The notes beneath the pieces were generated by a model. The model saw nothing but the letters and a program-made list of their open reading frames with translations, was not told the DNA's origin and ran no database searches. From Caldisericia bacterium (GTDB taxonomy: Bacteria; Caldisericota; Caldisericia; B22-G15), in assembly GCA_030018355.1 (NCBI GenBank), contig JASEFN010000003.1, positions 83,939 to 147,938 on the forward strand: 64,000 nt of DNA. Reading direction: 5' to 3'. Shown piece by piece: positions 5,556-27,824 of the stretch. The position numbers and the translations under genes are program-made. The first letter of the stretch is position 1, and the number at the start of each line of letters is the position of its first letter.

Positions 5556-5588
5556 GTCATATTAAATTTAGGATGTTATAATTTATTT

Positions 5589-6349: not shown

Positions 6350-6419
6350 TAAAATAACATCTTGAAATAAAAATTCAATTTTTGTTAAAATAATAAAAAT
6401 AATTTTTTGGAGTTATTTT

Positions 6420-7082
6420 GTGTTTAAAAAATTTAATGGATTTACAATAATAGAACTTATTGTTGTTATTACAATTCTTTCGATAATTTCAATGGGTATA
6501 ATTTATCTTTCTCCAACTCTTATTGCTACTCAAAAATTAAGAAATGATGCATGGCAACTTGTTAATGATTTAAGAGAGGTTCAGGTAAGAGCAATGGCAC
6601 AACTTGAAAAGTTAAAAATCAATTTTTATGTTTATAATCCAAGTACACCAGAATTAAATAATATTTATGTATTTGAATTAAGAGAAGGTGCAATTCAAAA
6701 TGCATATAATGTGGGAAAAGATATTGTTTATATTATTAATCATCCAGGCGAGTTTCCAAATATTGTTGTAAGAAAATTTAGCAAAAATATAGGTTTTCCA
6801 TACTCATTTGGATATACTCAGGGAATTACAACAGACGATGGTTTAGGTAGTGCAAATTCTGTTGTTTTTGGAACTCAATCATCTCCAATCTCTTATTTTG
6901 TTTCATTTTCTTTCAATGAATGGGGAAATCCATCTCAAGGAGGTCATATAAATTTAATTTCTAATAATTTACTTGGAAAAACAAAAGATTCAAAAGGCAA
7001 CAGATTACCAAAAGTTATAACAATTTACATAACACCAGCAACTGGTCGCATAAGATTTGTTGGACCTCGTGATTGGAATTAA
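6420..7082 (+). CDS. Prepilin-type pilin (GTG start).
   Basis: NGFTIIELIVVITILS N-terminus. It resembles the protein encoded at 5031-5555, especially in the N-terminal segment (LRNDAWQLVNDLREVQ vs LKNNAWQVLNDIKEVQ). Confidence 0.7.
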   Translation: MFKKFNGFTIIELIVVITILSIISMGIIYLSPTLIATQKLRNDAWQLVNDLREVQVRAMAQLEKLKINFYVYNPSTPELNNIYVFELREGAIQNAYNVGKDIVYIINHPGEFPNIVVRKFSKNIGFPYSFGYTQGITTDDGLGSANSVVFGTQSSPISYFVSFSFNEWGNPSQGGHINLISNNLLGKTKDSKGNRLPKVITIYITPATGRIRFVGPRDWN

Positions 7083-10742: not shown

Positions 10743-10767
10743 AAATTTCTCCTTTTGCCTGGTCTTC

Positions 10768-10920
10768 CCTTTGTTCACAGGTTACCCTGTGTTTTTGAGG
10801 AAGACCTCAAAGGACGGCAACATCCTTGAGGGCATCCGCCGAATGGTTCGATTTTACCCCTTTTAAATAAGGGGAACCCTCTTCCTCGTCACCCAGATTT
10901 TTATATCTGGGCCAGGCGCT
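10768..10920 (-). ncRNA. glmS ribozyme: glmS ribozyme (GlcN6P-dependent self-cleaving riboswitch).
   Basis: Minus-strand RNA reads ...A|GCGCCUGGCCCAGAU..AUCUGGGUGACGAGGAAGAGGGUUCC...AUCGAACCAUUCGGCGGAUGCCCUC...GUGAACAAAGGGAAGACC. This matches the conserved glmS ribozyme core seen in Bacillus: AGCGCC cleavage site, UGACGAGGA, UCGAA..UUCGGCGGAUGCC, GAACAAAG.GAA. Confidence 0.85.
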
Positions 10921-12196
10921 TTTTTAAAAAGTTTTCTAAGGAGAGTGCTATCTCCTTAATCTCTTCCTCTTTTTCACCTTCCACCATAATTCTAATTAAA
11001 TTTTCTGTTCCTGATGGTCTTACCAAAACCCTTCCTTTTCCATTTAATCTTTCATTCCATATCATCACCTCCTTTTTAAATTCTTCGTCATTCATAACTA
11101 AATTTTTATTTGAAACTTCTACATTTCTTAAAATTTGAGGATATCTTATAAATTCTTTTTTCAATTCAGAAAGTGGCTTGTTTTCATTTAAAATAACTCT
11201 CAAAAGTAAAAGTGAAGTTATTATTCCATCTCCAGTTTTACTTTGTGGGAGAAAAATTATGTGACCAGATTGTTCTCCACCAATTGGAGCATTTACTTCA
11301 AGCATTTTATAAAGAACATTTCTATCACCAACTGGAGTTTCATAATATTTTATCTTATATTTTTCAAGAAGAATTTTTAACCCAAAATTACTCATTACTG
11401 TTATTACAATGCTATCTAATTTTAGGTATTTAACGAGAATAAACATTATTATATCTCCATCTACAACTTCTCCCTTATCATCAACTGCAATAACTCTATC
11501 TCCATCTCCGTCAAAAGAAAATCCTATATCAAAGTTACTCTCTTTCTTTTTTTGAACAAGAAAATTAATATTTGTAGAGCCACAATTTACATTTATTTTA
11601 TTTCCATCTGGAATTTCATTATAAAGAATGAGATCTGCATTAAGTGATGAGAAAATAATTGGAGCAACAACCGTTGTTGAGCCATAAGCAAGATCCAAAG
11701 CAATTTTCATTCCTTTTAAATTTAATTTATTATTTTTTATAACCTCACTAATATATTGATGTTTACCTAAAAGAAATTCAAAATTTTTTCCGAAATTTTT
11801 ACTTAATTTAATTTCACTATCAATTAATTTTTCTATCTCTTCTTCCTCATCTTCTGAAAGTTTAATTCCACTTCTGTTGAAAAATTTTATTCCATTATAC
11901 TCAATTGGGTTGTGAGATGCAGAGATCATTCCTCCCCCACTTTTTCCATTTATTTTAAGAAGAAGAGAGAGTGCTGGTGTTGGAAGAATTCCAGTTGAAT
12001 AAACATTAACACCAGTAGATAAAATTCCTGAAATTAAAGCAGCCTCAAGTGAATCAGATGATAAACGAGGGTCTTTTGAAACAATTAAATCTCCTTTAAA
12101 AAATAATCCTGCTGCTTTGCCTACTTTTAAAGCAAAATCTGGTGTTAGATCTTCATTTGCAATGCCTCTTATACCATCAGTCCCAAAGTATTTCAT
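10901..12196 (-). CDS. glmM: Phosphoglucosamine mutase.
   Basis: ISASHNPIEYNGIKF phosphoserine-loop motif and the FGTDGIRG N-terminus. Confidence 0.9.
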   Translation of the reverse strand: MKYFGTDGIRGIANEDLTPDFALKVGKAAGLFFKGDLIVSKDPRLSSDSLEAALISGILSTGVNVYSTGILPTPALSLLLKINGKSGGGMISASHNPIEYNGIKFFNRSGIKLSEDEEEEIEKLIDSEIKLSKNFGKNFEFLLGKHQYISEVIKNNKLNLKGMKIALDLAYGSTTVVAPIIFSSLNADLILYNEIPDGNKINVNCGSTNINFLVQKKKESNFDIGFSFDGDGDRVIAVDDKGEVVDGDIIMFILVKYLKLDSIVITVMSNFGLKILLEKYKIKYYETPVGDRNVLYKMLEVNAPIGGEQSGHIIFLPQSKTGDGIITSLLLLRVILNENKPLSELKKEFIRYPQILRNVEVSNKNLVMNDEEFKKEVMIWNERLNGKGRVLVRPSGTENLIRIMVEGEKEEEIKEIALSLENFLKKRLAQI

Positions 12197-15080: not shown

Positions 15081-18000
15081 TTATGGTTTATAGTTTTTTT
15101 CATACATTGGTGATGAAAATTCCTTTTCTATATCATATGCTTTACAATATATAGGGCTTTTATTGTAAACTCTTACTTTACCTTTAGCGATTCCGTAAAA
15201 AATACAACCTTTTACAAATTTTCCAGTAAAATTTCCTGTAACAATATATCCATAATTATCATTAGTCATTGAATCCTTCCATGTAAAACTAAAACTTACA
15301 TTTCCATCCTTATCATATGTTCCTGAAACTTCTTGATAAGAATTGTAACAAGTGTTGCCGTCTCCCTTTATCTTTCCATCTTTAAATTGAAGACATAACC
15401 TAATTAATCTATTAGATGTTTCCCACTTGCAATTAATATCACTCCAACTTGGAGCTGTTCCATAAACTTCATAAAAACCATCACATTTTAGAAGAGTAGT
15501 AAATAACACATCTTTATTTGATTCATATTCATATTTTTCACCTGTATATACAACTACAGGCCCACTTTCAATATTTTGAGGAAGTTTTCCTTTTATTTCT
15601 TTATCACTCCAACTTAAAATCTCAATTTCTTTATTTCCAATAAGCACTTTACTTTTTGTTGTTTTATTTTTACCAAAAGAAAATCCATTTATTGTTATTG
15701 TATCTCCACCTTTTCCAGTTGTTGGGTTTATTGAAGAAACCTTTGGTAATATATTTAATGTTACTTTTATAATAAAATAATCTCTTAAAGAAGACTCTTC
15801 CCAAAGTGATGCATGAATAATTATATTTTGTTTACCATCTTTATCAGAAAGTAAATAATCTCTTAAATCTTCAACTTTATATTCATATGCATATTGAACA
15901 GATGATGCACTGTTTAATTTCGCTTCTGTAATAGAATATTTTTGAGTATCTTGTTTTATCTTTTTTCCAGGGTTTCCATTTTTATCTTCTTCTATTGCAG
16001 TTTGAATTTCGATATCTTTCTTATAATTTGAACCATTATAAGCATTCAATTTTAACTTAAGAAGTTCTGCATCTTGAGGAATAAAGAGAGTTTTTTCTTT
16101 TGTTTGAACATTTAACCAAATATATCCTTTCTCATCCGAGGGTTTAATCTGTAACTCATAAAAATTTGTGAGTTTTTTTGTATTTGGATTTGTTATATAA
16201 AAAGAAATTTCACCTGCTGACATTGAGTTTATTTCATCATTACCAGGACACATTAAAGAAAGAGAGGGATTTGCCGCAAAAGTTCCTTCTGGATAAAGAA
16301 TTAAATATTTTTCTGTTGCAACTTTGTGTCTTCCTTTAATCCAATCCCAATCTCTTACTGTATACATTGTTCCATTTTCACTATTTGCAGGTGAAATATT
16401 TTGTGGGTCATGAATTATTATTTCTTCTCCATTTTTTGTATATCCTAAAACTAAAACAACATGTTTTACCCAATTTAAAATAACTATATGTCCTTTATCA
16501 AGTTCTGATAAGATTCTCCATTTTAGATGTGCAATTGCAAAATAAGGTATATGATTTACTGTATAATCAATTTTTTGACTTAAAAAATTTCTTAAATTAT
16601 ATGAAAAAAGTTCTTGATTTAATCCAAAATCAGAATCTTCAACTTTTAGTTCTTTAAGAATATCAAAAAGTTCTATATCTAAACCACTATATTTTATTAA
16701 CATTTGGGCTGAAGTTGAGGCACAAGAACCACCAATTTGTTCATAATATGGCATTCTTATAATTTTTTCATTTGATTTTGGGGTATAATAAGGAGTCCAT
16801 CCAATATAAACTGATAATTTTTCTTTAAAATCTAAAATATTTGAATATAAATCTATAACTTTTGATGAAAAAATGTGATTTATCTTTTTACTTAATAAAG
16901 ATTCTTGAGAAATTTTAACTTTAAATAAACCACTGTTTGAATCATACTCAAATTTAAAATCATATTTTTCTTCTCTTTCTATATCATATCCAAAAATTTG
17001 TAGTTCTTCATTTTTTAATCCTTTTGGTCCATTTGCCTGTAATTCAATCTCTTTTTTAAGTTCTTTAAGGCCAGTTATTTCAAATCCTAATGTATCAACT
17101 GTTGAAAATGAAGGATTTATAATTGATCTTAAAGTGATTTTTGTATCTTGTGAAAATGAATTTTCAGGTATAATAAGTTTTGTTCCATCAGAAAGAATAA
17201 GTTCTCCTCCCAAGGTAGTAAAAACTTTTTCTCCTTCCGCTAATATTTTATTTATTTCAGAAGGAACTTCTAAATTATATGTTATTGTTATTGTCTTTGT
17301 ATTACCATCCCACTCAATAGTACAACCCAATTCTTCTGTAACAAATCTTAATGGGAGCATTGTTCTTCCATTTATTATTTGAGGCGGAACATCAAGTTCT
17401 TTAAGAATTCCATTTACTTTTGCGCTTTTTCTCTCAATCCAGAGTTCAAGAGTTTTTGCTTTAAGTTTTATTGTTACTTTTCTTGTAGTGCCATCCCACT
17501 CTATGGTTCCACCCATCTCTTCAATTATTGCTCTTATTGGAACAAGAGTTCTTCCTTTAACAATAACTGGAACTGTCTTTCTTCCTGGGTCTATCTCTTT
17601 TTTAACTCCATTAACTGTCATATAAGGGTTATTTATTTGAAGAATGATTGTTAAAACTCCCTCTTGAGTTTTGGTGTTATCTTGAGATGGAACTTCATTA
17701 GATATTTTAGTTCCTGTTACACCAAGAGCCCAGCCACTTGTTGGTCCTCTTCTCCATTTTCCAGTAAAAGTTTTACAATCTGAAGAAATTACGAATTCTA
17801 TTTCGCCTGCATCATAGGGTAAACTATAATTTGGTGCTTCTGCCCATGTTCCTGATAAAATATTTTGAGTAACTACACCTTCTATTTTTCCATTATCATA
17901 TTCATAAGTTCCTGTAACTCTATCTCCCTTTTGAATAAGATACATTTTTCCCCAACTTGTATCCCAAATTCCAGTCCAAGTGCAATTTGCTTTAACCTCT

Positions 18001-18101
18001 TTTTTGTTATTGAAAGAGAAGTTAATAAAAGATATAAAAAGGAAAGAAAAAATAATAGTTACAAAAAATATTGTTTTCAATCTGAGTAATAATTTATACA
18101 T
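15081..18101 (-). CDS. Large secreted multidomain protein. It carries copper-amine-oxidase-N-terminal-like repeats, a papain/C39-like cysteine peptidase-like segment and an IPT/TIG domain.
   Basis: Signal peptide. Two repeats ...VNG(V/I)(K/L)KE(I/L)D...GRT(L/M)(V/L)P(I/L)R(A/F)... fit the Cu-amine-oxidase N-terminal domain. GGSCASTSAQM fits a cysteine peptidase catalytic motif. SSINPTTGKGGDTITINGFSFG fits IPT/TIG. Confidence 0.5.
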   Translation of the reverse strand: MYKLLLRLKTIFFVTIIFSFLFISFINFSFNNKKEVKANCTWTGIWDTSWGKMYLIQKGDRVTGTYEYDNGKIEGVVTQNILSGTWAEAPNYSLPYDAGEIEFVISSDCKTFTGKWRRGPTSGWALGVTGTKISNEVPSQDNTKTQEGVLTIILQINNPYMTVNGVKKEIDPGRKTVPVIVKGRTLVPIRAIIEEMGGTIEWDGTTRKVTIKLKAKTLELWIERKSAKVNGILKELDVPPQIINGRTMLPLRFVTEELGCTIEWDGNTKTITITYNLEVPSEINKILAEGEKVFTTLGGELILSDGTKLIIPENSFSQDTKITLRSIINPSFSTVDTLGFEITGLKELKKEIELQANGPKGLKNEELQIFGYDIEREEKYDFKFEYDSNSGLFKVKISQESLLSKKINHIFSSKVIDLYSNILDFKEKLSVYIGWTPYYTPKSNEKIIRMPYYEQIGGSCASTSAQMLIKYSGLDIELFDILKELKVEDSDFGLNQELFSYNLRNFLSQKIDYTVNHIPYFAIAHLKWRILSELDKGHIVILNWVKHVVLVLGYTKNGEEIIIHDPQNISPANSENGTMYTVRDWDWIKGRHKVATEKYLILYPEGTFAANPSLSLMCPGNDEINSMSAGEISFYITNPNTKKLTNFYELQIKPSDEKGYIWLNVQTKEKTLFIPQDAELLKLKLNAYNGSNYKKDIEIQTAIEEDKNGNPGKKIKQDTQKYSITEAKLNSASSVQYAYEYKVEDLRDYLLSDKDGKQNIIIHASLWEESSLRDYFIIKVTLNILPKVSSINPTTGKGGDTITINGFSFGKNKTTKSKVLIGNKEIEILSWSDKEIKGKLPQNIESGPVVVYTGEKYEYESNKDVLFTTLLKCDGFYEVYGTAPSWSDINCKWETSNRLIRLCLQFKDGKIKGDGNTCYNSYQEVSGTYDKDGNVSFSFTWKDSMTNDNYGYIVTGNFTGKFVKGCIFYGIAKGKVRVYNKSPIYCKAYDIEKEFSSPMYEKNYKP

Positions 18102-18259: not shown

Positions 18260-18333
18260 TGGGGAGTAGCCAAGTGGTAAGGCAGCGGACTTTGGATCCG
18301 CGATCGGTGGTTCGAATCCACCCTCCCCAGCCA
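18260..18333 (+). tRNA. tRNA-Gln (anticodon UUG) with encoded CCA.
   Basis: Cloverleaf: acceptor TGGGGAG/CTCCCCA, D-arm GCC-AAGTGGTAA-GGC, anticodon stem GCGGA/TCCGC with loop CTTTGGA (anticodon TTG), T-arm GGTGG-TTCGAAT-CCACC, discriminator G, then CCA. Closely resembles E. coli tRNA-Gln. Confidence 0.9.
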
Positions 18334-18448: not shown

Positions 18449-19381
18449 ATGCATCAAACAGAAATACAGATTTTTAAACACCATCATAACTTTAATTTAG
18501 AGAAAAAATCTTTGGAAAAAAGAACATTTTTAGTTGTTCTTTTAACATTGTTTACAATGATTGTTGAAATTATAACTGGGTGGATTTATAATTCAATTGC
18601 ACTTTTTTCAGATGGATGGCATATGAGTACACATGCAGCTGCTTTAAGTATATCTTTATTTGCATATATTCTTGCTAGAAAATATTCAAATGATGAGAGT
18701 TTTACATTTGGTACATGGAAAATTGAAATATTAGGAGCCTATACAAGTGCAATTCTTTTAGGAATAGTTGGTATTTTTATTTTATTTGTATCCATAGAAA
18801 GAATTTTTAATCCTTTAAAGATAAATTATGAATATGCTTTAATTGTTGCAATAATAGGTCTATTAGTAAATTTAATAAGTGCATTTATTTTGGGGTATGA
18901 TCATGAAAATTATACTATTTCGGAAGATAAAGATAATGAGGCTCATCAATTACATAAAAAAGATTTAAATCTTAGATCTGCTTATTTACATGTTGTTGCT
19001 GATGCAATGACTTCTTTTTTTGCAATATTAGCACTACTTGGGGTTAAATATTATAATTGGAAAATACTTGATCCAATAGTTGGTGTAATTGGCTCTATTT
19101 TAATATTTAGATGGACTTATTTACTTATAAAAGATTCCTCAGGAATTTTATTAGATAGAGAGACGAATTCTAAAATAATAAAAGAGATAACAGAAAAAAT
19201 AGAATCTGATGGTGATAGTAAAATTTGTGATTTACACCTTTTAAGAGTTTCGCAAAATAAATATGCTTGTATTTTAAGTATTATTGCAAAAAATCCATCT
19301 TCAGTAGATGATTATAAAAAAAGATTAAAGGATATTGAGGAGTTAGTTCATTTGAATATAGAGATAAATTTATGTAAATAA
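18449..19381 (+). CDS. Cation diffusion facilitator (CDF) family metal efflux transporter.
   Basis: Six TM segments with GWHMSTHAAALSISLF and HVVADAMTS motifs, plus a C-terminal cytoplasmic domain. Confidence 0.85.
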   Translation: MHQTEIQIFKHHHNFNLEKKSLEKRTFLVVLLTLFTMIVEIITGWIYNSIALFSDGWHMSTHAAALSISLFAYILARKYSNDESFTFGTWKIEILGAYTSAILLGIVGIFILFVSIERIFNPLKINYEYALIVAIIGLLVNLISAFILGYDHENYTISEDKDNEAHQLHKKDLNLRSAYLHVVADAMTSFFAILALLGVKYYNWKILDPIVGVIGSILIFRWTYLLIKDSSGILLDRETNSKIIKEITEKIESDGDSKICDLHLLRVSQNKYACILSIIAKNPSSVDDYKKRLKDIEELVHLNIEINLCK

Positions 19382-19408
19382 ATCTAATTCTTAATTCTGG
19401 AGGGAGAA

Positions 19409-20944
19409 ATGGGTGAGTACATAATTGCGTATGATGTTGGGACAAGTTGTAATAAAGCACTTCTTGTTGATGCTAATGGCACACCAATTGCAAGTTCAAT
19501 TAGTTATTATGAAATAAAGTATCCAAAACCAAATTATGCTGAACAAGACCCAGATGATTGGTTAAGATCTATTTGTAAAACAACAAAAGATGTGCTTGAA
19601 AAATCAAAAATTAAAAAGGAGGAGATTTTAGGAATAACATTTTCAAATCAAATGCTTGGAATAATTCCTGTTAATAAAGATGGAAAATTAAGAGATGCAA
19701 TAATATGGCTTGATAATAGAGCAATAAAAGAAGCGGAAAATATGATGAGAAAATTTGTAAGTCCCAAAATTTTTGCACTTCTTGCAGGTGCACCTCTTAC
19801 TGGAAAAGATGGAATACCAAAACTTCTCTGGCTTAAAAATAATGAGAGAGAAATTTATGAGAAAATGGAATATTTTCTTGATGTTAATGGATATTTGATA
19901 TTCAAAACAACTGGGAATATGGTTATGGAACTTTCTAATGCCTCTGTTTTTGGTTTAGATCTAAAGAAAAAAGATTGGCTTAAATGGATTTTTGAGTATG
20001 TTGGAATTGATACAAAAAAACTTCCTCCACTTGTAAAATCTACTGATATAGTTGGCAAATTACGAAAGGATTTGGCTAATGAATGTGGACTTCTTGAAGG
20101 AACTCCTGTCATTGCTGGTGCTGGAGATGCACTATGTGCTTCTGTTGGAGCAGGTGCTGTATTAGAAGGTGATGCTCATTTTTATTTAGGAACATCTGGG
20201 TGGGTGGGAGTTATAACCAAAAGGCATCCTACTGGAAAATGTGGCATTGCAGTGATTCAATCTGCAGATTATGAAAATTCTTTTCTTTTTGCTGAAACAG
20301 AAACAGCAGGTGAGTGTTTAAGATGGATTAAAAATGAATTTTATAGAGAAGAATCTCAAGATCCAAATATAAAAAATGTTTATACTCTAATGGATGAAGA
20401 AGTAAAAAAAGTGACACCTGGATCTGGATTTTTAATTTTTACTCCATATCTTTTTGGGGAGAGGGCACCAGTGAATGATTGTTATGTAAGAGGAAGTTTT
20501 GTTAATTTGTGTATAAATCATAAAAGAGAAAATCTCTTAAGAGCAGTTTATGAGGGTGTTGGTTATAACATAAGATGGATTCTTAATATTATAGACGAAA
20601 AATTTGGTTTTAAAATTCCCTCTTTAAGAGTAATAGGTGGAGGTGCAAGAGGAGATATTTGGATGCAAATAATATCTGATATTACAGGGAAAAAAATAGA
20701 AACTTTAGAGTATCCACAAGAAAGAGGAGCAATTGGAGCAGCCTATATTGGTTTTATTGGTTTAGGATTGATAAAAGATTTTAAATCTTTAAAAGAATTA
20801 ATAAAGCCATTTAAAATTTTTGAACCAAATTTAAATAACAAAAAAATTTATGATTTTCTTTTTGATAAGTTTAAAGATGTATATAAAAATTTAAAAAAAT
20901 TTTATAAAGAATTAAACAAAAAAATTGAGGAAATGAAATTTTAA
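19409..20944 (+). CDS. FGGY-family carbohydrate kinase (xylulokinase/glycerol kinase-like).
   Basis: YIIAYDVGTSCNKALLVD N-terminal actin-fold motif, GTSGWVG, and GGGARGDIWMQI C-terminal motif. Confidence 0.85.
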   Translation: MGEYIIAYDVGTSCNKALLVDANGTPIASSISYYEIKYPKPNYAEQDPDDWLRSICKTTKDVLEKSKIKKEEILGITFSNQMLGIIPVNKDGKLRDAIIWLDNRAIKEAENMMRKFVSPKIFALLAGAPLTGKDGIPKLLWLKNNEREIYEKMEYFLDVNGYLIFKTTGNMVMELSNASVFGLDLKKKDWLKWIFEYVGIDTKKLPPLVKSTDIVGKLRKDLANECGLLEGTPVIAGAGDALCASVGAGAVLEGDAHFYLGTSGWVGVITKRHPTGKCGIAVIQSADYENSFLFAETETAGECLRWIKNEFYREESQDPNIKNVYTLMDEEVKKVTPGSGFLIFTPYLFGERAPVNDCYVRGSFVNLCINHKRENLLRAVYEGVGYNIRWILNIIDEKFGFKIPSLRVIGGGARGDIWMQIISDITGKKIETLEYPQERGAIGAAYIGFIGLGLIKDFKSLKELIKPFKIFEPNLNNKKIYDFLFDKFKDVYKNLKKFYKELNKKIEEMKF

Positions 20945-20957
20945 AGAGGAGGTTTTT

Positions 20958-22265
20958 ATGAATTTAGATCCATTATCATTGCCAATTGCCTTACCTGAGG
21001 GTGTAGATTATGATGATTATCTTGTGGCAACATATCTTGCAATTTTTCCAAAAGAGATACCAGTGAGAAAACTTGCACCTGCTCTTGCAATTGAGCAAAG
21101 TACAGGAACATGGGTTCCTGTTCCAGGCGAGACCCCAGAAGTTAAAAGAAAACATATTGCAAAAGTTATTGGAGTTTATGAAATTCCAGATTATGAATTT
21201 GAAATTCCAAAAGAAGTAACAATGAGAAATTACATAATTCAAATTGCTTTCCCTGAAATAAACATTGGAGAGCAAATTCCAATGCTTCTTACCACTATTG
21301 TTGGTAACATATCTATGGGTGGGAGAATTAAACTTCTTGATATCCGATTTCCAGAAAAATTTGTTAAAGGATTTAAAGGTCCAAAATTTGGAATTGAAGG
21401 TATAAGAAAATTACTCAATATTCCAAAAAGGCCCCTTTTAAATAATATGATAAAACCATGCACAGGATATACAGTTGATGTTGGTGCTGAACTATTTAGA
21501 TTAGCAGCATTAGGAGGATGTGATATTGTAAAAGACGATGAACTAATTGCAGATGCAAGTTTTAATAGAATTGAAGAGAGAGTAAAAAGATATATGCAGA
21601 TTGAAAAAGAAGTTTATGAAATTAAAGGGGAGCATACATTATATACTGTTAATATTACTGATTCAGTACCAAAAATTTTTGAAAATGCAAAAAGAGCAAT
21701 AGATGCAGGTGCGAATGCTTTAATGATAAACTATCTTGCAGTTGGTTTTGCAGTTTTTCAAGCAATAGCAGAAGATCCAGAAATTCAGGTTCCAATTCTT
21801 GCTCATATGGATGTTGCTGGTGCTCTATATATGTCTCCTGATTTTGGAATAACATCTCATCTTGTTTTAGGCAAATTAATAAGACTTGCTGGAGCAGATA
21901 TTGTTGTTATTCCTGCACCTTATGGAAAAGCACAAGTTTTACCTGAAAAATTTATAAACAATGCAAACAATTTGAGACTTCCATTTTATCACATAAAGCC
22001 CACATTTCCTATGGCTTCTGGTGGAATAACACCATCAATGGTTCCAAAAGTTATCGAAGATTTAGGTCTTGATATTGTTATTGGTTCAGGTGGTGGAATT
22101 CATGCTCATCCTGAAGGACCAATAGCAGGAGGAAAAGCATTTAGGCAAGCAATTGAAGCAACAATGAGGGGAATTCCTTTAAAAGAAGCAGCAAAAGAGT
22201 ATAGAGAACTCGCAATTGCTCTTGAAAAATGGGAAGATCCATTTGGAAAGGGTCTTGGTATATAA
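20958..22265 (+). CDS. RuBisCO-like protein (form IV RLP), not a carboxylase.
   Basis: GGCDIVKDDE (vs RuBisCO GGLDFTKDDE) and a VIGSGGGIHAHP glycine loop. The H-R pair of the LHIHRAMHA motif is replaced by ILAHMDVAGA, so the R295 equivalent is missing, typical of RLPs. Confidence 0.8.
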   Translation: MNLDPLSLPIALPEGVDYDDYLVATYLAIFPKEIPVRKLAPALAIEQSTGTWVPVPGETPEVKRKHIAKVIGVYEIPDYEFEIPKEVTMRNYIIQIAFPEINIGEQIPMLLTTIVGNISMGGRIKLLDIRFPEKFVKGFKGPKFGIEGIRKLLNIPKRPLLNNMIKPCTGYTVDVGAELFRLAALGGCDIVKDDELIADASFNRIEERVKRYMQIEKEVYEIKGEHTLYTVNITDSVPKIFENAKRAIDAGANALMINYLAVGFAVFQAIAEDPEIQVPILAHMDVAGALYMSPDFGITSHLVLGKLIRLAGADIVVIPAPYGKAQVLPEKFINNANNLRLPFYHIKPTFPMASGGITPSMVPKVIEDLGLDIVIGSGGGIHAHPEGPIAGGKAFRQAIEATMRGIPLKEAAKEYRELAIALEKWEDPFGKGLGI

Positions 22266-22269
22266 AAAC

Positions 22270-22298
22270 TCTTGACAAATATAAAAATAGTTATATAT
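22270..22298 (+). promoter_or_regulatory. Sigma-70-like promoter for the ABC importer operon.
   Basis: TTGACA, a 16-nt spacer, then TATATT. Confidence 0.45.
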
Positions 22299-22366
22299 TT
22301 TTTAAAATAATTTTCAAAGAAGGAGGTGAGGCTTTTTTATTATTTTTTAAATTTGGAGGTGACTAA

Positions 22367-23965
22367 ATGAGGAGTTTTAAACTTTTAACAACTTTTATTT
22401 TAATTACCTTATTAGTATTCAGTGTTTTATTAAGTAGTGGGTGTAAGAAAAAAGTTGAAGTTGTAACTCTTACATTCGCAAAAGCAGGCGATGTTGTAAA
22501 ACTTGATCCGGCAGATGTTACAGATGGCGAATCAATAACAGTTATGAACAATATTTTTGAGGGTCTTATAAGATATAAACCAGGAACAACAGAAATTGAA
22601 CCATGGCTTGCAGAGAAATGGGATGTGAGTCCTGATGGACTTACTTTTACATTTTATTTGAGAAAAGGCGTTAAATTTCATGATGGAACAGATTTTAATG
22701 CAGATGCTGTGGTATTTTCTTTAGAAAGACAACGTGATCCAAATCATCCATTCCATAAATATGGTGAATGGGAATATTGGAGTTGGTGTTTCAATGAAAT
22801 TGAGAAAGTTGAAAAAGTTGATGATTACACAGTAAGAATAAAATTAAGCGAACCATTTGCACCATTTTTAACAACAATGGCAATGTTTACAGTTTATATT
22901 GTAAGTCCAGCAAATCATGAAAAATGGGGTGCTGAAGCAAGTTCACATCCAGTTGGAACTGGACCATTTAAATTTGTTGAATGGGTAAAAGATGATCATA
23001 TAACTCTTGAAAAGTTTGAAAATTATTGGGGACCAAAACCAAAAATTGATAAATTAATATTTAAAGTTATTCCAGATCCATCAGTAAGACTACTTGAACT
23101 TCAAAAGGGAACGATTGATGGAATGGAGTTTCCAAATCCAGATGATCTTGAAAAGATTAAAAGCGATAAAAATTTAACACTTTTATCTCAACCAGGATTA
23201 AATATAGGATATCTTGCATTTAATTTAGGAGAAGATACACCTGGATATGATCCAAAATTAAGTGATGTAAGAGTAAGAAAAGCAATATACCATGCTATAA
23301 ATAGAAAAGATATTGTTGAACATCTTTATAAAGGTACAGCAGTTGTTGCTAAAAATCCACTTCCACCAACTCTTTGGGGATATAATGATGAAATTGAAGA
23401 TTATGAATATAATCCTGATAAGGCAAAAGAACTTTTAAAAGAAGCAGGATATCCAAACGGATTTGAAACTAATCTTTGGGCAATGCCAGTTGCAAGACCA
23501 TATATGTTTGATCCACAAAAAATTGCAGAAGCAATTCAATCTGATCTGGCAAAAGTTGGAATTAAAGCAAAAATTGTTACTTATGATTGGGGAACATATC
23601 TGGATAAAACAGAAGGTGGAGAACATGCGATGTGTCTTCTTGGTTGGACAATGGATTATCCAGATCCAGATAATATTCTTTATGTTCTTCTTGATCCAGA
23701 TGCTGCAACTGTAGGAAGTGCAGGTAATGTTGCATTTTATAGAAATCCAAAAGTACATGAACTTAATATGCTTGCAAGAAAAACTTATGATATTAAAGAA
23801 AGAGAAAAATATTATAAAGAAATTCAAAGAATAATTCATGAAGATATACCTTGGGTTCCTCTTGCACATTCACAACAGATGGTTGTCTTTAGAAGCAATG
23901 TAAAAGGTTTCCTTCTTTATCCAACAGGTGATTATCACTTTGATACAGTTTATATTGAAAAGTAA
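22367..23965 (+). CDS. ABC transporter substrate-binding lipoprotein, family 5 (peptide/nickel/opine type).
   Basis: Lipobox LLSSGC, size 532 aa, and the characteristic SBP_bac_5 architecture. Confidence 0.85.
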   Translation: MRSFKLLTTFILITLLVFSVLLSSGCKKKVEVVTLTFAKAGDVVKLDPADVTDGESITVMNNIFEGLIRYKPGTTEIEPWLAEKWDVSPDGLTFTFYLRKGVKFHDGTDFNADAVVFSLERQRDPNHPFHKYGEWEYWSWCFNEIEKVEKVDDYTVRIKLSEPFAPFLTTMAMFTVYIVSPANHEKWGAEASSHPVGTGPFKFVEWVKDDHITLEKFENYWGPKPKIDKLIFKVIPDPSVRLLELQKGTIDGMEFPNPDDLEKIKSDKNLTLLSQPGLNIGYLAFNLGEDTPGYDPKLSDVRVRKAIYHAINRKDIVEHLYKGTAVVAKNPLPPTLWGYNDEIEDYEYNPDKAKELLKEAGYPNGFETNLWAMPVARPYMFDPQKIAEAIQSDLAKVGIKAKIVTYDWGTYLDKTEGGEHAMCLLGWTMDYPDPDNILYVLLDPDAATVGSAGNVAFYRNPKVHELNMLARKTYDIKEREKYYKEIQRIIHEDIPWVPLAHSQQMVVFRSNVKGFLLYPTGDYHFDTVYIEK

Positions 23966-23977
23966 AATTAAGTTAAA

Positions 23978-24004
23978 GGGGGCCTTTGTGCCCCCTTATT
24001 TTTA
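23978..24004 (+). terminator. Intra-operon attenuator/terminator hairpin after the SBP gene.
   Basis: GGGGGC-CTTTGT-GCCCCC followed by TTATTTTTAT. Confidence 0.55.
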
Positions 24005-24006
24005 TA

Positions 24007-25008
24007 ATGAGAAAGTACATTTTAAGAAGAGCATTTGAATTATTAATAGTTCTATTTATTGTTTCAATAATTACGTTTCTTTTAATTAGACTTGTCCCAG
24101 GTGATCCTGCTCAAATTCTTGCTGGTGAACATGTAACTGAAAAAATTTTAGAAGAGATAAGAGAGAAATATGGGTTAAATAAGCCAATTATTACACAATA
24201 CTTTATATGGATAAGCCAAATTTTAAGAGGAGATTTTGGTAGATCAATTAGAACTGGTGAAAGTGTTATAAAAGAACTTTTTTATAGATTTGCTAATACA
24301 TTTGAACTTTCTCTATTCGCTATTTTAATTGCAACTCTTGTTGGAGTTTTTGCTGGAATTATTTCAGCAACAAAAAGAGGATCATTTATTGATTATTTAA
24401 CAATGACAGCAGCACTTTTTGGTGTTTCAATGCCAGTTTTCTGGCTTGGTATAATGCTTATGCTTATTTTTGGAATATGGTTAAACATTTTACCAGTATC
24501 AGGAAGAGTTGATATAGGAATAAATTTAACAAGAATAACAAATTTTATGATATTAGATTCTATTTTAACTTTAAATTTTCATGCACTTCTATCAATTTTA
24601 AAACATTTAATTCTTCCAAGCATTGCCCTTGCAACAATTCCAATGGCTTTTATTGCAAGAATAACAAGGTCAAGCATGCTTGATGTATTAAATAAAGATT
24701 ATATTAGAACTGCTAAAGCAAAAGGAGTTAATGAAAGAGTTGTAATTTATAGACATGCCTTAAGAAATGCTTTAATTCCAGTTATTACAAGTATTGGAAC
24801 TGAATTTGCCCTTCTTCTTGGAGGAGCAATTTTAACAGAAACTGTTTTTGCTTGGCCTGGTCTTGGAAGATATATTGTTGGTGCAGTCTCTTCAAGAGAT
24901 TATCCAGTTGTTCAAGGTTCAATTATTTTTGTTGCTTTTATTGTTGTTATTGTTAATTTAATAGTTGATATTTTATATGCATTTATTGATCCAAGGATAA
25001 GGTATTAA
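24007..25008 (+). CDS. ABC transporter permease (DppB/OppB-like).
   Basis: The MRKYILRRAFELL start is typical of DppB. The start was moved from the track's 23986, which lies inside the terminator hairpin. Confidence 0.8.
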   Translation: MRKYILRRAFELLIVLFIVSIITFLLIRLVPGDPAQILAGEHVTEKILEEIREKYGLNKPIITQYFIWISQILRGDFGRSIRTGESVIKELFYRFANTFELSLFAILIATLVGVFAGIISATKRGSFIDYLTMTAALFGVSMPVFWLGIMLMLIFGIWLNILPVSGRVDIGINLTRITNFMILDSILTLNFHALLSILKHLILPSIALATIPMAFIARITRSSMLDVLNKDYIRTAKAKGVNERVVIYRHALRNALIPVITSIGTEFALLLGGAILTETVFAWPGLGRYIVGAVSSRDYPVVQGSIIFVAFIVVIVNLIVDILYAFIDPRIRY

Positions 25009-25871
25009 TGGAAAGAAAAAGTGAATATTATTTTATTTGGAAATATTTAAGAAAAAATAAAACCGCAATGATCGGTCTTTTTATAATAATTCTTCTTGTG
25101 TTAGTTGCTCTCTTTGCAAATTTTATCTCTCCTTTTGATCCATATACTCAATCTCTTAAAGATAGATTCAAACCTGGTTTTTGGAAAGGTAATACAATAA
25201 ATTTCCTTGGAACAGATGATTTTGGAAGAGATCTTTTATCAAGAGTGATTTTTGGATCAAGGATTTCTTTAACTGTTGGGTTCATTGCAGTAGTTATAGG
25301 AGTTTTAATAGGATCTTTTTTTGGTGTAATTTCTGGTTATTTTGGTGGAATCATTGATAGCATAATAATGAGAGGTGTTGATGTAATGTTTTCTCTTCCA
25401 AGTATCCTTCTTGCAATTGTTATTATGGCAATTTTAGGTACTGGTTTAGATAAAGCAATGATTGCAATTGGAATTACTTATGCTCCTCAAATTGCAAGGA
25501 TAGTAAGATCACAAACAATTGTTGTTAAAAATATGGAGTTTGTCGAAGCAGCAATTTCAATTGGTGAACCACATTTAATGATTATTTTTAGACATATTGT
25601 AAGAAATGTTTTATCCCCAATTATTGTTTATGGAACTCTTTCAATTGGTAGTGCAATTTTAGATGCTGCTGCTTTAGGTTTTTTAGGACTTGGTGCTCAA
25701 CCTCCGACACCCGAATGGGGGGCAATTCTTTCAAGAAGTTATCAATATATTGTTGCTGGTGCTTGGTGGGTTGCAACTTTTCCTGGTTTAATGATACTTA
25801 TTTCTGTTCTTGGGTTTAATCTGCTTGGAGATGGTTTAAGGGATGCTATTGATCCAACATTAAGATATTAA
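25008..25871 (+). CDS. ABC transporter permease (DppC/OppC-like).
   Basis: N-terminal NFISPFDPY and the EAA-like loop region. Translationally coupled. Confidence 0.8.
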   Translation: MERKSEYYFIWKYLRKNKTAMIGLFIIILLVLVALFANFISPFDPYTQSLKDRFKPGFWKGNTINFLGTDDFGRDLLSRVIFGSRISLTVGFIAVVIGVLIGSFFGVISGYFGGIIDSIIMRGVDVMFSLPSILLAIVIMAILGTGLDKAMIAIGITYAPQIARIVRSQTIVVKNMEFVEAAISIGEPHLMIIFRHIVRNVLSPIIVYGTLSIGSAILDAAALGFLGLGAQPPTPEWGAILSRSYQYIVAGAWWVATFPGLMILISVLGFNLLGDGLRDAIDPTLRY

Positions 25872-25909: not shown

Positions 25910-26545
25910 ATGAAAATAAAATTTTTGGGACATTCATGTTTTTTGATTGAAATAGGTGGTTTAAAGGTTATGACAGATCCCTATGATAAATCAGTACCCT
26001 ATGATTTTCCAGATGGAGAAGAAGTAGATGTAGTTACAATATCACATGATCATTTTGACCATTCTGCTTTTAATAGAGTAAAAATAAAAAGAGAAGTTTT
26101 AAAAGATCCAACTAATAAGGAAATTCAAGGTGTAAAATTTAAATCAAAAACTTTTTTCCACGATGAAGAAATGGGGAGAAAAAGAGGAAAAAATGCACTC
26201 TTTTTAATTGAGGGAGAGGGAATAAAAATTTTACATTGTGGAGATTTAGGCCACATTCCTAATGAGAAAGATTTAGAAGAGTTTAAAAATATTGATATAC
26301 TTTTGCTTCCAGTTGGGGGATACTATACAATTGATTCAAAAAAAGGAGATGAGTTGATTAAAATTTTAAATCCAAAAATTGTTATACCAATGCATTATAA
26401 GACAAAAAATCTTGATTTTCCAATTGCAAAAGTTGATGATTTTTTAAAAAATAAAGAAAATGTACATAAATTAAATTCACTTGAATTTGAACTTGATAAA
26501 TCTAATATTGAAAAATACAAAGGTATTGTTGTATTTCCATTTTAG
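25910..26545 (+). CDS. MBL-fold metal-dependent hydrolase (UPF0173-like).
   Basis: KFLGHSCFLIE...VVTISHDHFDH motif. Confidence 0.65.
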   Translation: MKIKFLGHSCFLIEIGGLKVMTDPYDKSVPYDFPDGEEVDVVTISHDHFDHSAFNRVKIKREVLKDPTNKEIQGVKFKSKTFFHDEEMGRKRGKNALFLIEGEGIKILHCGDLGHIPNEKDLEEFKNIDILLLPVGGYYTIDSKKGDELIKILNPKIVIPMHYKTKNLDFPIAKVDDFLKNKENVHKLNSLEFELDKSNIEKYKGIVVFPF

Positions 26546-26603: not shown

Positions 26604-27824
26604 ATGAAAAAAATTTCTATTTTAGGTGGGTGTGGAACAGTTGGTAGAGTTGCAACAAAAATTCTTTTTTCAACACAAAACTATGAAATTACCGTTTGCG
26701 ATAGAGATAAAGAAGTGTTTGAATCTATTTTTGGTGAGATATCAAAATTTTTAAAATTTAAAGAATTGGATGCAAATATTGATGAATCAATAAAAGATGC
26801 AATTAGAGATACAGATGTAGTTTTAAATTGTATAGGGCCATATTATAAATATGGGCCAAAGATACTTAAAGAGGCAATAGAGTTATACAAAAATTATGTT
26901 GATGTGTGCGATGATTTTGATGCCACAATAGAGGATCTTAAATTTCATCAATTGGCAGAAGAAAAGAAGGTTTCATGTTTAATTGGAATGGGTAGTTCAC
27001 CTGGACTTGCAAACATTATTGTAAAATTTGCAGAAATGTTTCTTTTTGATGAAATAAACTCAATTGATATCTACCATGCACATGGTGGAGAAGAGTATGA
27101 AGGTCCTGCAGTTGTAAAACATAGAATTCATTCAATGCTTTCTCCTATTCCAGTTTTTCTTGATGGTGAATATAGAGAGGTTAAACTTTTTGAAGAAAGT
27201 GGTAAGACACTTGAAGAAATAGTTGAATTTCCAGGTCTTGGTACATACCCTGTTTATGCTTATCCACATCCTGAAACAATAACTCTTCCAAAATATATAA
27301 AAGGAGTAAAAAGAGTAACAAATTTAGGACTTGTTCTTCCCCCTCAATATGCAGAATTAATAAAGAATATAGTTAGAGTAGGGATTGTTGAAGAAGAACC
27401 AATTGATGTAATGGGTACTTTAATTTCACCACTTGATTTTTCAGTAAATTATATTCTTTATAAAAGGAAAGAATTAATTGAAAAATATGGTCCAAAAGAA
27501 CCTCAAGGATGTTTAAAAATCACAATAAAAGGAATAAAGAGTGAAGAAAATATCCAATATGATTTCTCGATTTTTTCAAAAGGAAAAGGAATGGGTGAGG
27601 GAACAGGAATTCCAGCAGCAATAGGAACTATTTTAATGAGCGAGGGTTTAGTTAAAGGAATAGGAGTTAATCCTCCTGAAGCGGTTCTTAATCCAGTGGA
27701 TGTTTTTAAATTACTTTTTAAAATAATGAAAGGTGAAAAAATTCCAATTTTAATTGAAAAAATTAAGGATAAGAAAAAAGAAACTGTTGATTTAGATGTT
27801 CTTTTAAAAGAATATTTAAATTAA
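26604..27824 (+). CDS. Saccharopine dehydrogenase-like NAD(P)-binding oxidoreductase.
   Basis: ILGGCGTVGRVATKIL Rossmann motif and about 400 aa, fitting the Sacchrp_dh family. Confidence 0.6.
   Translation: MKKISILGGCGTVGRVATKILFSTQNYEITVCDRDKEVFESIFGEISKFLKFKELDANIDESIKDAIRDTDVVLNCIGPYYKYGPKILKEAIELYKNYVDVCDDFDATIEDLKFHQLAEEKKVSCLIGMGSSPGLANIIVKFAEMFLFDEINSIDIYHAHGGEEYEGPAVVKHRIHSMLSPIPVFLDGEYREVKLFEESGKTLEEIVEFPGLGTYPVYAYPHPETITLPKYIKGVKRVTNLGLVLPPQYAELIKNIVRVGIVEEEPIDVMGTLISPLDFSVNYILYKRKELIEKYGPKEPQGCLKITIKGIKSEENIQYDFSIFSKGKGMGEGTGIPAAIGTILMSEGLVKGIGVNPPEAVLNPVDVFKLLFKIMKGEKIPILIEKIKDKKKETVDLDVLLKEYLN

Follow-up and report, generated by a model that had tools for sequence, protein, structure and literature searches.

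A RuBisCO-like protein (RLP) encoded in the genome of a Caldisericia bacterium appears, from its sequence, to be a member of a distinct, uncharacterised clade. Its conserved partners are an FGGY sugar kinase and an enzyme of amine/carbonyl chemistry, which is either a saccharopine-dehydrogenase-like (SacDH-like) NAD(P) enzyme or, in other lineages, an aminotransferase. We favour the explanation, with a probability of roughly 0.45, that these genes make up an uncharacterised kinase/RLP/amine-carbonyl module that does not belong to methionine salvage. We found no paper in the literature describing such a module. Since the RLP is distinct from both MtnW and CO2-fixing RuBisCO, and its kinase partner is present in every related genome examined and an amine enzyme in most, the genes suggest a sugar-phosphate pathway of anaerobic bacteria and archaea that has yet to be described.

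The kinase–RLP gene cluster is a genuine feature of the window (the whole 64,000-nt stretch of DNA that was analysed). All six ORFs of the preliminary description were recovered at their coordinates on the plus strand and given Pfam and NCBIfam assignments: a CDF transporter (18449–19381; PF01545), a xylulokinase-like FGGY kinase of 511 aa (19409–20944; PF00370 and PF02782), the RLP of 435 aa (20958–22265; PF02788 and PF00016), a family-5 substrate-binding lipoprotein (SBP) of 532 aa (22367–23965; PF00496, 408 bits), a DppB/Opp2B-like ABC permease (23986–25008; PF00528 and PF19300) and a DppC-like ABC permease (25008–25871; PF00528 and PF12911). A tRNA-Gln (18260–18333) lies between a divergent upstream gene and the CDF gene. 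Downstream, on the same strand, follow a metallo-beta-lactamase-fold hydrolase of 211 aa (25910–26545; PF13483, 165.6 bits) and the SacDH-like gene, encoding 406 aa (26604–27824; PF03435 and PF16653), which falls outside the range described earlier and is split from the RLP gene by the transporter genes. The hydrolase gene keeps its position between importer and SacDH-like gene only in the closest related locus (L001), and its membership in the pathway is uncertain. The FGGY–RLP gap, previously given as 14 nt, is 13 nt on recounting (AGAGGAGGTTTTT) and carries a GGAGG site; in two related loci (L003 and L005) the two ORFs overlap. As for the separate promoter assigned to the SBP and permease genes, a candidate is present in the RLP/SBP intergenic region (TTGACA-16-TATATT, 22272–22299, plus strand, 11/12 consensus match), but such matches are not enriched in this AT-rich region (60 found versus 65.8 ± 8.2 in shuffles); a promoter ahead of the SBP gene is possible. 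A GC-rich hairpin followed by a T run (23976–23997, plus strand; 8-bp stem, 6 GC pairs) spans the SBP–permease junction, overlapping the TTG codon at which the permease ORF is listed to start, and might act as an attenuator after the SBP gene.

Conservation of the neighbourhood was assessed with one locus per species, although the loci are not phylogenetically independent, and with a distance limit of 6 kb in the 45 species-level loci with enough flanking sequence. An FGGY kinase gene lies upstream of the RLP gene in all 45, mostly abutting it, and the kinases are 50–76% identical to that of the window. The pairing is therefore not coincidental, and the FGGY kinase is a core partner of the RLP. 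Its best NCBIfam match is XylB (TIGR01312; 343 bits, cut-off 380), followed by GntK (279 bits) and LsrK (198 bits), and it matches the AI-2 kinase LsrK in the PDB (5ya0) at 1.2e-40. FGGY genes are also paired with more distant RLP relatives. At ∼49% identity (P0124), the order is RLP–FGGY, with Aminotran_3 and Aldolase_II genes nearby; at ∼47% (P0126), Fe-ADH, RLP, Zn-ADH and FGGY genes are consecutive, with ABC-transporter genes further downstream. In a relative with 60% identity (P0121), an Aminotran_3 gene precedes the RLP gene.

The SacDH-like enzyme is the third conserved partner of the pair. A relative of the RLP is encoded in 422 loci; in the best 80 of these (70–89% identity), the SacDH-like gene lies directly downstream of the RLP gene about 40 times. 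Among the 45 well-flanked loci, a SacDH-like gene is found within 6 kb in 24 and a class-III aminotransferase gene in 16, never both, so that 40 loci carry one or the other; a class I/II PLP enzyme encoded right after the RLP in another locus (L040) brings the total with an amine enzyme to 41, and the remaining 4 contain only the FGGY–RLP pair. The SacDH-like partner is found chiefly in Dehalococcoidia and Caldisericota, the aminotransferase chiefly in Anaerolineae and Thermoflexia. Considering that the partners are split by lineage and that the loci are not independent, the mutual exclusivity may be the result of only a few events. SacDH-like genes are also paired with FGGY and/or RLP genes in Actinomycetota (SacDH–FGGY–RLP in Ca. 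Solincola), Archaeoglobus (SacDH–RLP) and Bathyarchaeia (SacDH–FGGY). An AlphaFold2 model of the window protein (pLDDT 92) is nearest in fold to carboxyspermidine dehydrogenase (TM 0.80) and L-lysine dehydrogenase (3abi; TM 0.70/0.80), with BioU also among the matches, at only ∼20% identity to any solved member. Among enzymes of the SacDH fold is an NAD-dependent primary-amine dehydrogenase, L-lysine 6-dehydrogenase (PMC10413350). This conserved amine/carbonyl enzyme, in either form, had been missed in the preliminary description.

The transporters had been counted as part of the same system. For the CDF transporter, tblastn (E ≤ 1e-10, at least half of the query covered) found no homologue in the best 80 of the 422 related loci, including the closest, and the protein scores as the Co/Ni efflux protein DmeF (339.9 bits, cut-off 250). 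RuBisCO-family enzymes, for their part, use Mg2+. We conclude that the CDF gene stands next to the module without being related to it. A few lineages besides this one also have a family-5 ABC importer or parts of it close to the pair, but within the operon the importer is lineage-specific and occurs only in this Caldisericia lineage (the window and L001); likewise, the SBP gene is found at a matching position only in L001. In L040, the pair has a full family-5 system directly beside it, whose SBP gene (32% identity) adjoins the FGGY gene; family-5 permease genes lie upstream of the pair in L064 and L076, and MFS genes are near it in eight other loci. Altogether, MFS or family-5 ABC genes occur within 6 kb in 10 of the 45 well-flanked loci. 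The SBP scores best against DppA (475 bits, cut-off 1005) and the first permease against the Opp2B nickel permease (338.8 bits, cut-off 350). By eye, the SBP has a possible lipoprotein signal peptide ending in LLSSGC. There is no ABC ATPase gene after the permeases and no adjacent ORF has Walker-A/LSGGQ motifs, so the importer is without local ATPase genes. The SBP is a candidate lineage-specific accessory for import of the pathway substrate.

In order to define the RLP active site, residues were numbered by alignment to spinach RbcL, whose sequence was confirmed to be identical to PDB 1ir1. Sixteen of 20 RuBisCO active-site residues are kept, E60, N123, K175, K201, D203, E204, H294, K334 (E46, N117, K166, K192, D194, E195, H283 and K324 in the window protein) and the proximal-phosphate glycines among them. 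Lost are K177 (C168) and the distal-phosphate site (R295M, H298A and H327V; M284, A287 and V317). As stated earlier, the R295 equivalent is missing, with Met284 in its place, and the RLP is of form-IV type, not a RuBP carboxylase. The same signature is found in all relatives checked (58–97% identity; Caldisericota, Chloroflexota, Actinomycetota and archaea), with no variation except at position 298, which is either Ala or Thr, and at position 379 of a single sequence; T173 is replaced by Met and K177 by Cys. The retention of E60, N123 and K334, all lost in MtnW, had escaped notice.

The data show the gene content, the conserved partnerships, the active-site pattern and the separation from MtnW and true RuBisCO; from these we infer an order of steps, a kind of substrate and a direction, and, by analogy with the family, the enolisation chemistry. 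The xylulokinase-like FGGY kinase would phosphorylate a free ketose-like compound, probably supplied in this Caldisericia genome by the family-5 importer inserted into the operon. The RLP would bind the monophosphate through its retained proximal-phosphate site (S354-G355-G356, G378-G379, T51 and W52). With a carbamylated K192 and Mg2+ on D194/E195, the RLP would form an enediolate, after which the substrate is isomerised or tautomerised. Just before or after these steps, the SacDH-like enzyme, as an NAD(P)-dependent amine dehydrogenase, would convert between amine and carbonyl, a role taken by the aminotransferase in other lineages. Since the distal-phosphate site has become Met/Ala/Val, the substrate probably has no charge at its far end, which would be deoxy, methylthio or short-chain. 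The import–phosphorylation–enolisation/isomerisation route proposed earlier thus stands as a reasonable outline, with the CDF transporter removed and the importer confined to certain lineages. A hydrophobic distal pocket is not an obvious fit for an amine-bearing substrate, and the position of the amine enzyme in this scheme is tentative.

A simple isomerase would have no need of E60, N123 and K334, and their retention is a hint of carboxyl chemistry. An RLP that carries out such chemistry, which we consider unlikely, could decarboxylate a beta-keto-acid phosphate in the manner of OiaX/OtnC or, more boldly, add CO2 to an uncharged-tail ketose monophosphate (such as 5-deoxy- or 5-methylthio-ribulose 1-phosphate), giving 3-phosphoglycerate and a 2-hydroxy acid that is then handled by the pathway of the amine enzyme. 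The eight catalytic residues listed above are those with which RuBisCO enolises its substrate and adds CO2, and the E60/N123/K334 trio is shared by the OiaX-like clade of P0232, which reaches 524 bits with the OiaX model. Identity of the RLP to P0167, a representative in which all the RuBisCO residues are present, is 39.7%, much the same as its 40.6% identity to MtnW. The Bathyarchaeia SacDH–FGGY pair, with no RLP, has a class-II-aldolase-family gene nearby, whose product scores 119 bits against the model of OtnC, a 3-oxo-tetronate-4-phosphate decarboxylase (cut-off 250). However, kept residues by themselves do not prove activity, K177 and T173 are replaced, the RLP scores only 192 bits against the OiaX model (cut-off 700) and a DUF1537 kinase is absent. 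Moreover, R295 and H327 are retained in OiaX-like proteins but not in the RLP family, whose hydrophobic distal site makes a distal carboxylate unlikely.

Somewhat more doubtful is salvage of a by-product of S-adenosylmethionine (5′-methylthioadenosine, 5′-deoxyadenosine or the AI-2 precursor DPD), with the RLP acting like the Rhodospirillum rubrum 5-methylthioribulose-1-phosphate 1,3-isomerase or like LsrG on phospho-DPD. The hydrophobic distal pocket (M284, A287 and V317) resembles the Pro/Ser/Leu that MtnW has at these positions, which in MtnW face the methylthio tail; the kinase is clearly similar to LsrK; radical-SAM genes recur near the pair in some loci; and the presence of the module in a 1.76-Mb Chloroflexota genome (L058) would fit housekeeping salvage. 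Nevertheless, MtnA, MtnP/N, cupin, LuxS and LsrF-type families were unmatched in the recurrent neighbour clusters and annotated adjacent genes, the annotation having covered clusters with a minimum of four to five loci and a selection of the neighbouring genes. The amine enzyme is left without explanation, an exogenous substrate is favoured by the transporter genes that several lineages have beside the pair, and PDB 3qfw, an R. palustris RuBisCO-family chain that may or may not represent DeepYkr, gives 110 bits compared with 313 for MtnW.

That the RLP is simply the MtnW of methionine salvage (2,3-diketo-5-methylthiopentyl-1-phosphate enolase) and has a kinase neighbour by chance is very improbable. 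Its top NCBIfam and PDB matches are indeed MtnW (PRK09549, 398.8 bits; 2oek, 4e-92), and close relatives carry that name in some database sources, but both curated cut-offs are missed (409 for PRK09549; 359.2 bits versus 513.6 for the second model). Placement in the MtnW clade, named in the preliminary description as the case against it, is not what was found: the RLP family forms its own clade in 98 of 100 neighbour-joining bootstraps, apart from the MtnW group (62–69/100). The invariable FGGY partner also argues against MtnW, as does the lack of methionine-salvage genes among the recurrent locus neighbours and the ∼20 window ORFs annotated by Pfam/NCBIfam, the other ORFs having been read by eye. 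Asn117 stands where the Geobacillus kaustophilus enzyme has its general base Lys98, and the missing catalytic Lys contradicts an MtnW identity. A true RuBP-carboxylating form III RuBisCO, despite the 16 matching positions, is contradicted by the sequence and practically untenable, since replacement of K177, R295, H298 and H327 leaves the distal phosphate of RuBP with no binding site, the rubisco_III model gives 274 bits (cut-off 497), and AMP phosphorylase, R15P isomerase and PRK are not among the annotated neighbours.

Compared with known systems, the nearest solved structures and curated models are those of MtnW/YkrW (G. kaustophilus 2oek and Bacillus subtilis 2zvi; ∼41% identity). Both families keep K175, K201, D203, E204 and H294 and have a non-basic distal site. 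Positions 60, 123, 334 and 379–381 are Gly, Lys, Ser and S-A-G in MtnW but, as in RuBisCO, Glu, Asn, Lys and S-G-G in the RLP family, which has an FGGY kinase in place of MtnK/A/B/X. Form III RuBisCO of the archaeal pentose-bisphosphate pathway (∼40% identity for a representative with all the RuBisCO residues) shares the enolisation and CO2-addition residues but differs in its neighbour genes and in having the distal-phosphate site and K177. In the OiaX/OiaT (D-apionate) and OtnC (tetronate) pathways, a keto-sugar-acid phosphate made by a kinase is likewise passed to an RLP or a class-II-aldolase-family enzyme, although that kinase is a DUF1537 protein and not FGGY. For the third partner, BioU replaces the class-III aminotransferase BioA, and lysine epsilon-aminotransferase is the aminotransferase counterpart of L-lysine 6-dehydrogenase; in both cases a SacDH-fold enzyme and a class-III aminotransferase perform one amine/carbonyl conversion in different organisms, on substrates (8-amino-7-oxononanoate and lysine) that have no evident connection with RLPs or sugar kinases. 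In Rhodospirillum rubrum and R. palustris, the DeepYkr RLP is a 5-methylthioribulose-1-phosphate 1,3-isomerase (PMC5893883). Its partners MtnP, MtnA and a cupin methylsulfurylase are absent from the annotated RLP neighbours, which instead include the FGGY kinase and the amine enzyme. In terms of chemistry, isomerisation of an uncharged-tail ketose monophosphate via enediolates, as in DeepYkr, is what we consider most likely for the RLP.

Between positions 18449 and 30144 of the window (G+C ~28%), eleven ORFs follow one another in the same direction; neighbours overlap by 1 nt at the closest and are 101 nt apart at the widest, and most have GGAGG ribosome-binding sites. One protein of the window is identical to P0271, which is annotated from a Caldisericia MAG. 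Pfam and NCBIfam matches give the order CDF transporter, FGGY kinase (19409–20944, + strand), RuBisCO-like protein (RLP; 20958–22265, +), family-5 substrate-binding protein (SBP), two permeases, MBL-fold protein, saccharopine-dehydrogenase-like (SacDH-like) protein (26604–27824, +), GlmU and Prs. The gene calls and coordinates of the preliminary description proved right, and its kinase–RLP spacing of 14 nt is corrected to 13 nt. It had also given the SBP and permease genes a promoter of their own; a good consensus match is indeed present at 22272–22299, but such matches are equally common in shuffled sequence, and the promoter claim is without statistical support in 28%-GC DNA. Because the transporter and MBL genes intervene, the SacDH-like gene lies 4.3 kb downstream of the RLP gene. 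The same layout, with transporter and MBL genes between RLP and SacDH-like genes, is seen in the closest MAG (L001); in a more distant Caldiserica MAG (L003), the FGGY, RLP and SacDH-like genes are contiguous. A tRNA-Gln gene (anticodon TTG; 18260–18333, +) sits between the CDF gene and a divergent upstream gene. On the minus strand, positions 15081–18101 encode a 1006-aa protein with copper-amine-oxidase N-terminal-like, Peptidase_C39-like and TIG domains, which is conserved upstream of the cluster in L001 at 72% identity.

The cluster and seven related loci yielded no riboswitch that might give a clue to the ligand. Elsewhere in the window, a glmS ribozyme (10751–10931, −; RF00234, 91 bits) lies upstream of a glmS-like ORF (8919–10778), and an ORF that follows (10901–12196) is phosphoglucosamine-mutase-like, a call made by eye from its N-terminus. 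A c-di-GMP-II riboswitch match (601–688, +; RF03169), at 42.6 bits barely above the gathering score of 40, is directly followed by a run of prepilin-like ORFs (738–7082) with GFTLIEL-type motifs at their N-termini. Type III-B CRISPR-Cas effector genes at 56811–63978 (−) encode Cmr2/Cas10, Cmr3, an APE2256/Csx1-like protein, a RAMP protein, Cmr5 and a second RAMP protein; no CRISPR array was found near them in the ORF-poor stretch 54400–56900.

The RLP belongs to the RuBisCO large-subunit superfamily, with scores of 39.5 bits for PF02788 and 152.7 bits for PF00016, which exceed the gathering score in each case. Spinach RbcL, in a copy identical to PDB 1ir1 over 475 residues, supplied the numbering for an alignment of 111 superfamily members. 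In this numbering the RLP retains E60, T65, W66, N123, K175, K201, D203, E204, H294 and K334 as well as S379, G380, G381, G403 and G404, and carries the changes K177C, R295M, H298A, H327V and L335A; its own residues at RuBisCO positions K177, R295, H298 and H327 are C168, M284, A287 and V317. In the alignment, the metal and carbamate residues (K192, D194, E195) and the enolisation residues (K166, H283) are in place, the proximal-phosphate cradle is intact and the distal site is apolar. Since the distal-phosphate ligands R295, H298 and H327 are all lost, together with K177, the RLP cannot be a RuBP carboxylase, in agreement with the preliminary description. It thus lacks the complete residue set of bona fide RuBisCO (forms I–III), and its score against the rubisco_III model, 274.1 bits, is below the cut-off of 497.

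The closest database matches of the RLP are the MtnW (YkrW) enolases of methionine salvage, which act on DK-MTP-1-P (PRK09549, 398.8 bits; PDB 2oek, E = 4e-92), but neither MtnW equivalog cut-off is reached (409 for PRK09549; 513.6 for TIGR03332, which scores 359.2 bits). Lys98 of Geobacillus kaustophilus MtnW is reportedly the general base of the enolase reaction, in work of Imker et al. 2007, and aligns with Asn117 of the RLP (RuBisCO position 123); because asparagine stands at the general-base position, a defining MtnW feature is missing. None of mtnK, mtnA, mtnB, mtnX and mtnD was found among the ~20 window ORFs annotated by Pfam or NCBIfam (the rest were judged by eye), nor among the recurrent neighbours in the best 80 of 422 related loci. 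The RLP also falls well short of the OiaX/NonPhoto group of the apionate pathway (192.3 bits against a cut-off of 700), and its kinase partner is of the FGGY and not the DUF1537 family. For the DeepYkr clade of MTRu-1-P 1,3-isomerases, to which RLP1 of R. rubrum and R. palustris belongs, no cupin, the partner methylsulfurylase, was seen among the annotated recurrent neighbours, and a PDB search with cluster representative P0159, meant as an anchor for this clade, gave YkrW structures only. PDB 3qfw, a RuBisCO-family chain from R. palustris whose clade is unverified, scored 110 bits against the RLP.

Among 1.84 billion cluster representatives searched, 387 proteins matched at E <= 1e-30. A neighbour-joining tree of representatives joined the window RLP and twelve sampled close relatives (72–97% identity) in one clade in 98/100 bootstraps; widening it by four representatives with the M295-A298-V327 combination, one of which shares 60% identity with the window RLP, gave 70/100. 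MtnW, with 2oek and 2zvi as anchors, formed a separate clade (62–69/100) that did not contain the window RLP, so that the placement which would have made the kinase neighbour coincidental is not observed. Identity to MtnW is 40.6%, and to P0167, a representative with the full RuBisCO residue set, 39.7%. Representatives that are 47–50% identical to the window RLP and have N123, C177 and K334 in common are grouped loosely around the family. In a scan of one genome per species, covering 20 kb around each locus, 422 loci encode an RLP relative; the best 80, at 70–89% identity, come from Caldisericota and Chloroflexota (among the latter Dehalococcoidia, Anaerolineae and Thermoflexia). The active-site signature recurs in Ca. 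Solincola (Actinomycetota, 64% identity), in an Archaeoglobus MAG (58%) and in a protein (59%) from a contig with ubiquitin, E1, E2 and JAB-type genes. The contig of the 60%-identical RLP (L081) has ubiquitin, ThiF/E1, UQ_con/E2 and JAB genes in a row (1334–4385), a eukaryote-like ubiquitin system that could suggest an archaeal host. In operons whose RLP is 72–80% identical, the kinase and SacDH-like protein reach only 50–60%. The RLP, at 70–89% identity across phyla, evolves more slowly than its operon partners, and its conservation therefore reflects constraint and not recent transfer.

Window proteins were compared by tblastn with the best 80 of the 422 loci, and partners were counted strictly, within 6 kb of the RLP gene, at those 45 loci whose sequence extends to at least 4 kb upstream and at least 2.5 kb downstream of it. 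The FGGY kinase is present at all 45, so the partnership noticed in the window is conserved. A SacDH-like gene occurs at 24/45 loci and a class-III aminotransferase gene at 16/45; the two are never found together (0/45), and 40 of the 45 loci have one or the other. Where present, the SacDH-like gene usually comes directly after the RLP gene, and the aminotransferase gene directly precedes the kinase gene in the cases in which gene order was examined. Of the five loci left, L040 carries a gene for a class I/II PLP enzyme right after the RLP gene, and the other four have the kinase–RLP pair only. Farther from the window RLP, a 60%-identical relative has an Aminotran_3 gene directly upstream and no kinase. 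For P0124 (49% identity) the order is RLP–FGGY with Aldolase_II and Aminotran_3 genes nearby, and for P0126 (47%) Fe-ADH, RLP, Zn-ADH and FGGY genes stand in a row, with ABC-transporter genes further downstream. Searches from the SacDH-like protein recovered TetR-SacDH-FGGY-RLP in Ca. Solincola and SacDH-RLP in Archaeoglobus. In Bathyarchaeia (L093/L094, 3991–8807), SacDH-like and FGGY genes are adjacent, with MFS, class-II-aldolase-family and HAD phosphatase genes nearby and no RLP; the aldolase-family enzyme may substitute for it there. Taken with the other gene orders, this means that any two of the three components are found together somewhere, the pattern to be expected of a functional module.

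On one Dehalococcoidia contig (L036/L037, 2905–12874), the FGGY-RLP-SacDH unit and three further genes occur twice as a perfect inverted duplication; this may be a genuine palindrome or may have arisen in assembly. L086 (P0123, 50% identical) has glpA-like (DAO), FAD-binding and GlpC-like (CCG/Fer4) genes on the two sides of its RLP gene, another context for an RLP, apparently linked to polyol phosphate oxidation.

The kinase is an FGGY family member (FGGY_N 187.4 bits, FGGY_C 94.9 bits) that stays below the XylB equivalog cut-off (TIGR01312, 343 bits against 380.25). It resembles xylulokinase, gluconokinase and AI-2 kinase, all of which phosphorylate a terminal hydroxyl. The SacDH-like protein belongs to the saccharopine/carboxyspermidine dehydrogenase superfamily (Sacchrp_dh_NADP 51.8 bits, Sacchrp_dh_C 36.6 bits). 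Its confident AF2 model (pLDDT 92) is nearest in fold to CASDH (8deb, TM 0.80) and then to L-lysine dehydrogenase (3abi), with BioU further down the list of matches; the protein scores 41.7 bits against the carboxy(nor)spermidine dehydrogenase equivalog cut-off of 800 and shares ~20% identity with solved CASDH structures. Carboxyspermidine dehydrogenase, L-lysine dehydrogenase and BioU make or break C–N bonds next to a carbonyl in NAD(P)-dependent reactions. Class-III lysine epsilon-aminotransferase performs the same reaction as L-lysine 6-dehydrogenase, and another class-III enzyme, BioA, has BioU as its replacement. The homology of L-lysine 6-dehydrogenase is recognised, and it acts as a primary-amine dehydrogenase (PMC10413350). 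Given these two precedents and the lineage-wise alternation, the exchange of SacDH-like enzyme and aminotransferase is best read, by analogy, as non-orthologous displacement of one amine/carbonyl step. The alternation tracks taxonomy and may thus reflect few events. All NCBIfam matches that could name a function for the aminotransferases and Aldolase_II proteins were below cut-off.

The CDF transporter scores as a Co/Ni efflux pump of the DmeF equivalog (339.9 bits, cut-off 250). The preliminary description had suggested that it may supply or remove the divalent metal of the RLP. A supplying role finds no support. The transporter has no tblastn match in any of the best 80 of 422 loci, L001 included, where a lectin-like protein and an alpha/beta-hydrolase are encoded upstream of the kinase. 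Because of this absence, we reject it as part of the system. The importer genes (22367–25871) comprise a binding protein and two permeases and no adjacent ATPase, and thus fall short of a full Opp/Dpp-type family-5 system, which would include two ATPases. ATPase genes are absent in the window and in L001 alike, so the importer must either be served by ATPases from another place in the genome or borrow those of a second system. In the window lineage, this importer is inserted inside an otherwise contiguous operon. An Anaerolineae MAG (L040) has a complete family-5 system with two ATPases, divergent from and adjoining the kinase. In L064 the RLP has family-5 permease genes within 6 kb, and in L076 such genes are found ~7 kb upstream; another eight loci have MFS genes near the kinase–RLP pair. 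Import of the substrate is thus plausible in several lineages, but most loci have no transporter, and the preliminary description's importer step holds only to that extent.

To our knowledge, every characterised RLP forms an enediolate and isomerises or tautomerises its substrate in some form. We tentatively favour a module of this kind (probability about 0.45). The kinase would deliver a ketose-like substrate that carries a single phosphate and has no charge at its far end; the RLP would form the enediolate and then isomerise or tautomerise it; and the amine enzyme would tie the carbon skeleton of the substrate to an amino compound.

The main rival, which we consider unlikely, is that the RLP performs carboxyl chemistry, either decarboxylation or even CO2 addition. 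It draws on E60, N123 and K334, which are kept in the RLP and in the OiaX-like decarboxylase clade and lost in MtnW, and it is compatible with the Aldolase_II-family gene, of the family of the decarboxylase OtnC, near the SacDH-FGGY pair of the RLP-less Bathyarchaeia, although that protein is below every curated cut-off. Salvage of a SAM by-product would fit an RLP pocket that is apolar and a module that is found even in a 1.76-Mb genome, but no annotated neighbouring gene supports it, and we regard it as quite improbable. A very long shot is a RuBisCO acting on monophosphates, in which a ketose 1-phosphate whose tail is uncharged would take the place of RuBP and its enediolate would still receive CO2. 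Substrates such as 5-deoxy- or 5-methylthio-ribulose 1-phosphate are equally remote candidates within it, and just as improbably the products would be 3-phosphoglycerate and a 2-hydroxy acid, the latter passed on via the neighbouring amine/oxo enzyme. Were it true, the RLP would be a present-day link between form III RuBisCO and MtnW-type RLPs and part of a new salvage route by which widespread anaerobes incorporate CO2. As substrates, Amadori compounds, amino-polyols, 2-amino-aldonic acids, DXP and phospho-DPD were weighed as well; each fits some partners and none fits all, and none is put forward.

Whether the reaction is the favoured isomerisation or tautomerisation or another, the family combines a distinctive RuBisCO-like active site with a conserved, unexplained three-enzyme context. 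The few RLP clades with an assigned reaction that we know of are the methionine-salvage enolase, the MTRu-1-P isomerase and the apionate-pathway decarboxylase and transcarboxylase. The full-text literature searched contains no account of this clade or of its partnerships; key subscription papers lay outside that search, and an earlier characterisation may exist. A genome paper on a different RLP calls the functions of such proteins unknown (PMC7325909). The clade is widespread in uncultured anaerobes that dominate sediments and aquifers, spanning Dehalococcoidia, Anaerolineae, Caldisericota and some Actinomycetota, with archaeal relatives. Metabolic reconstructions now label its members 'RuBisCO' or 'MtnW', a gap that an assigned reaction would fill, and the three-gene module is a compact, directly testable system. 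An assigned reaction would also bear on how carboxylation was gained or lost in the superfamily. The RuBisCO catalytic set is kept more fully here than in MtnW: where the two solved MtnW enzymes have G60, K123, S334 and S-A-G at 379–381, the RLP has E60, N123, K334 and S-G-G.
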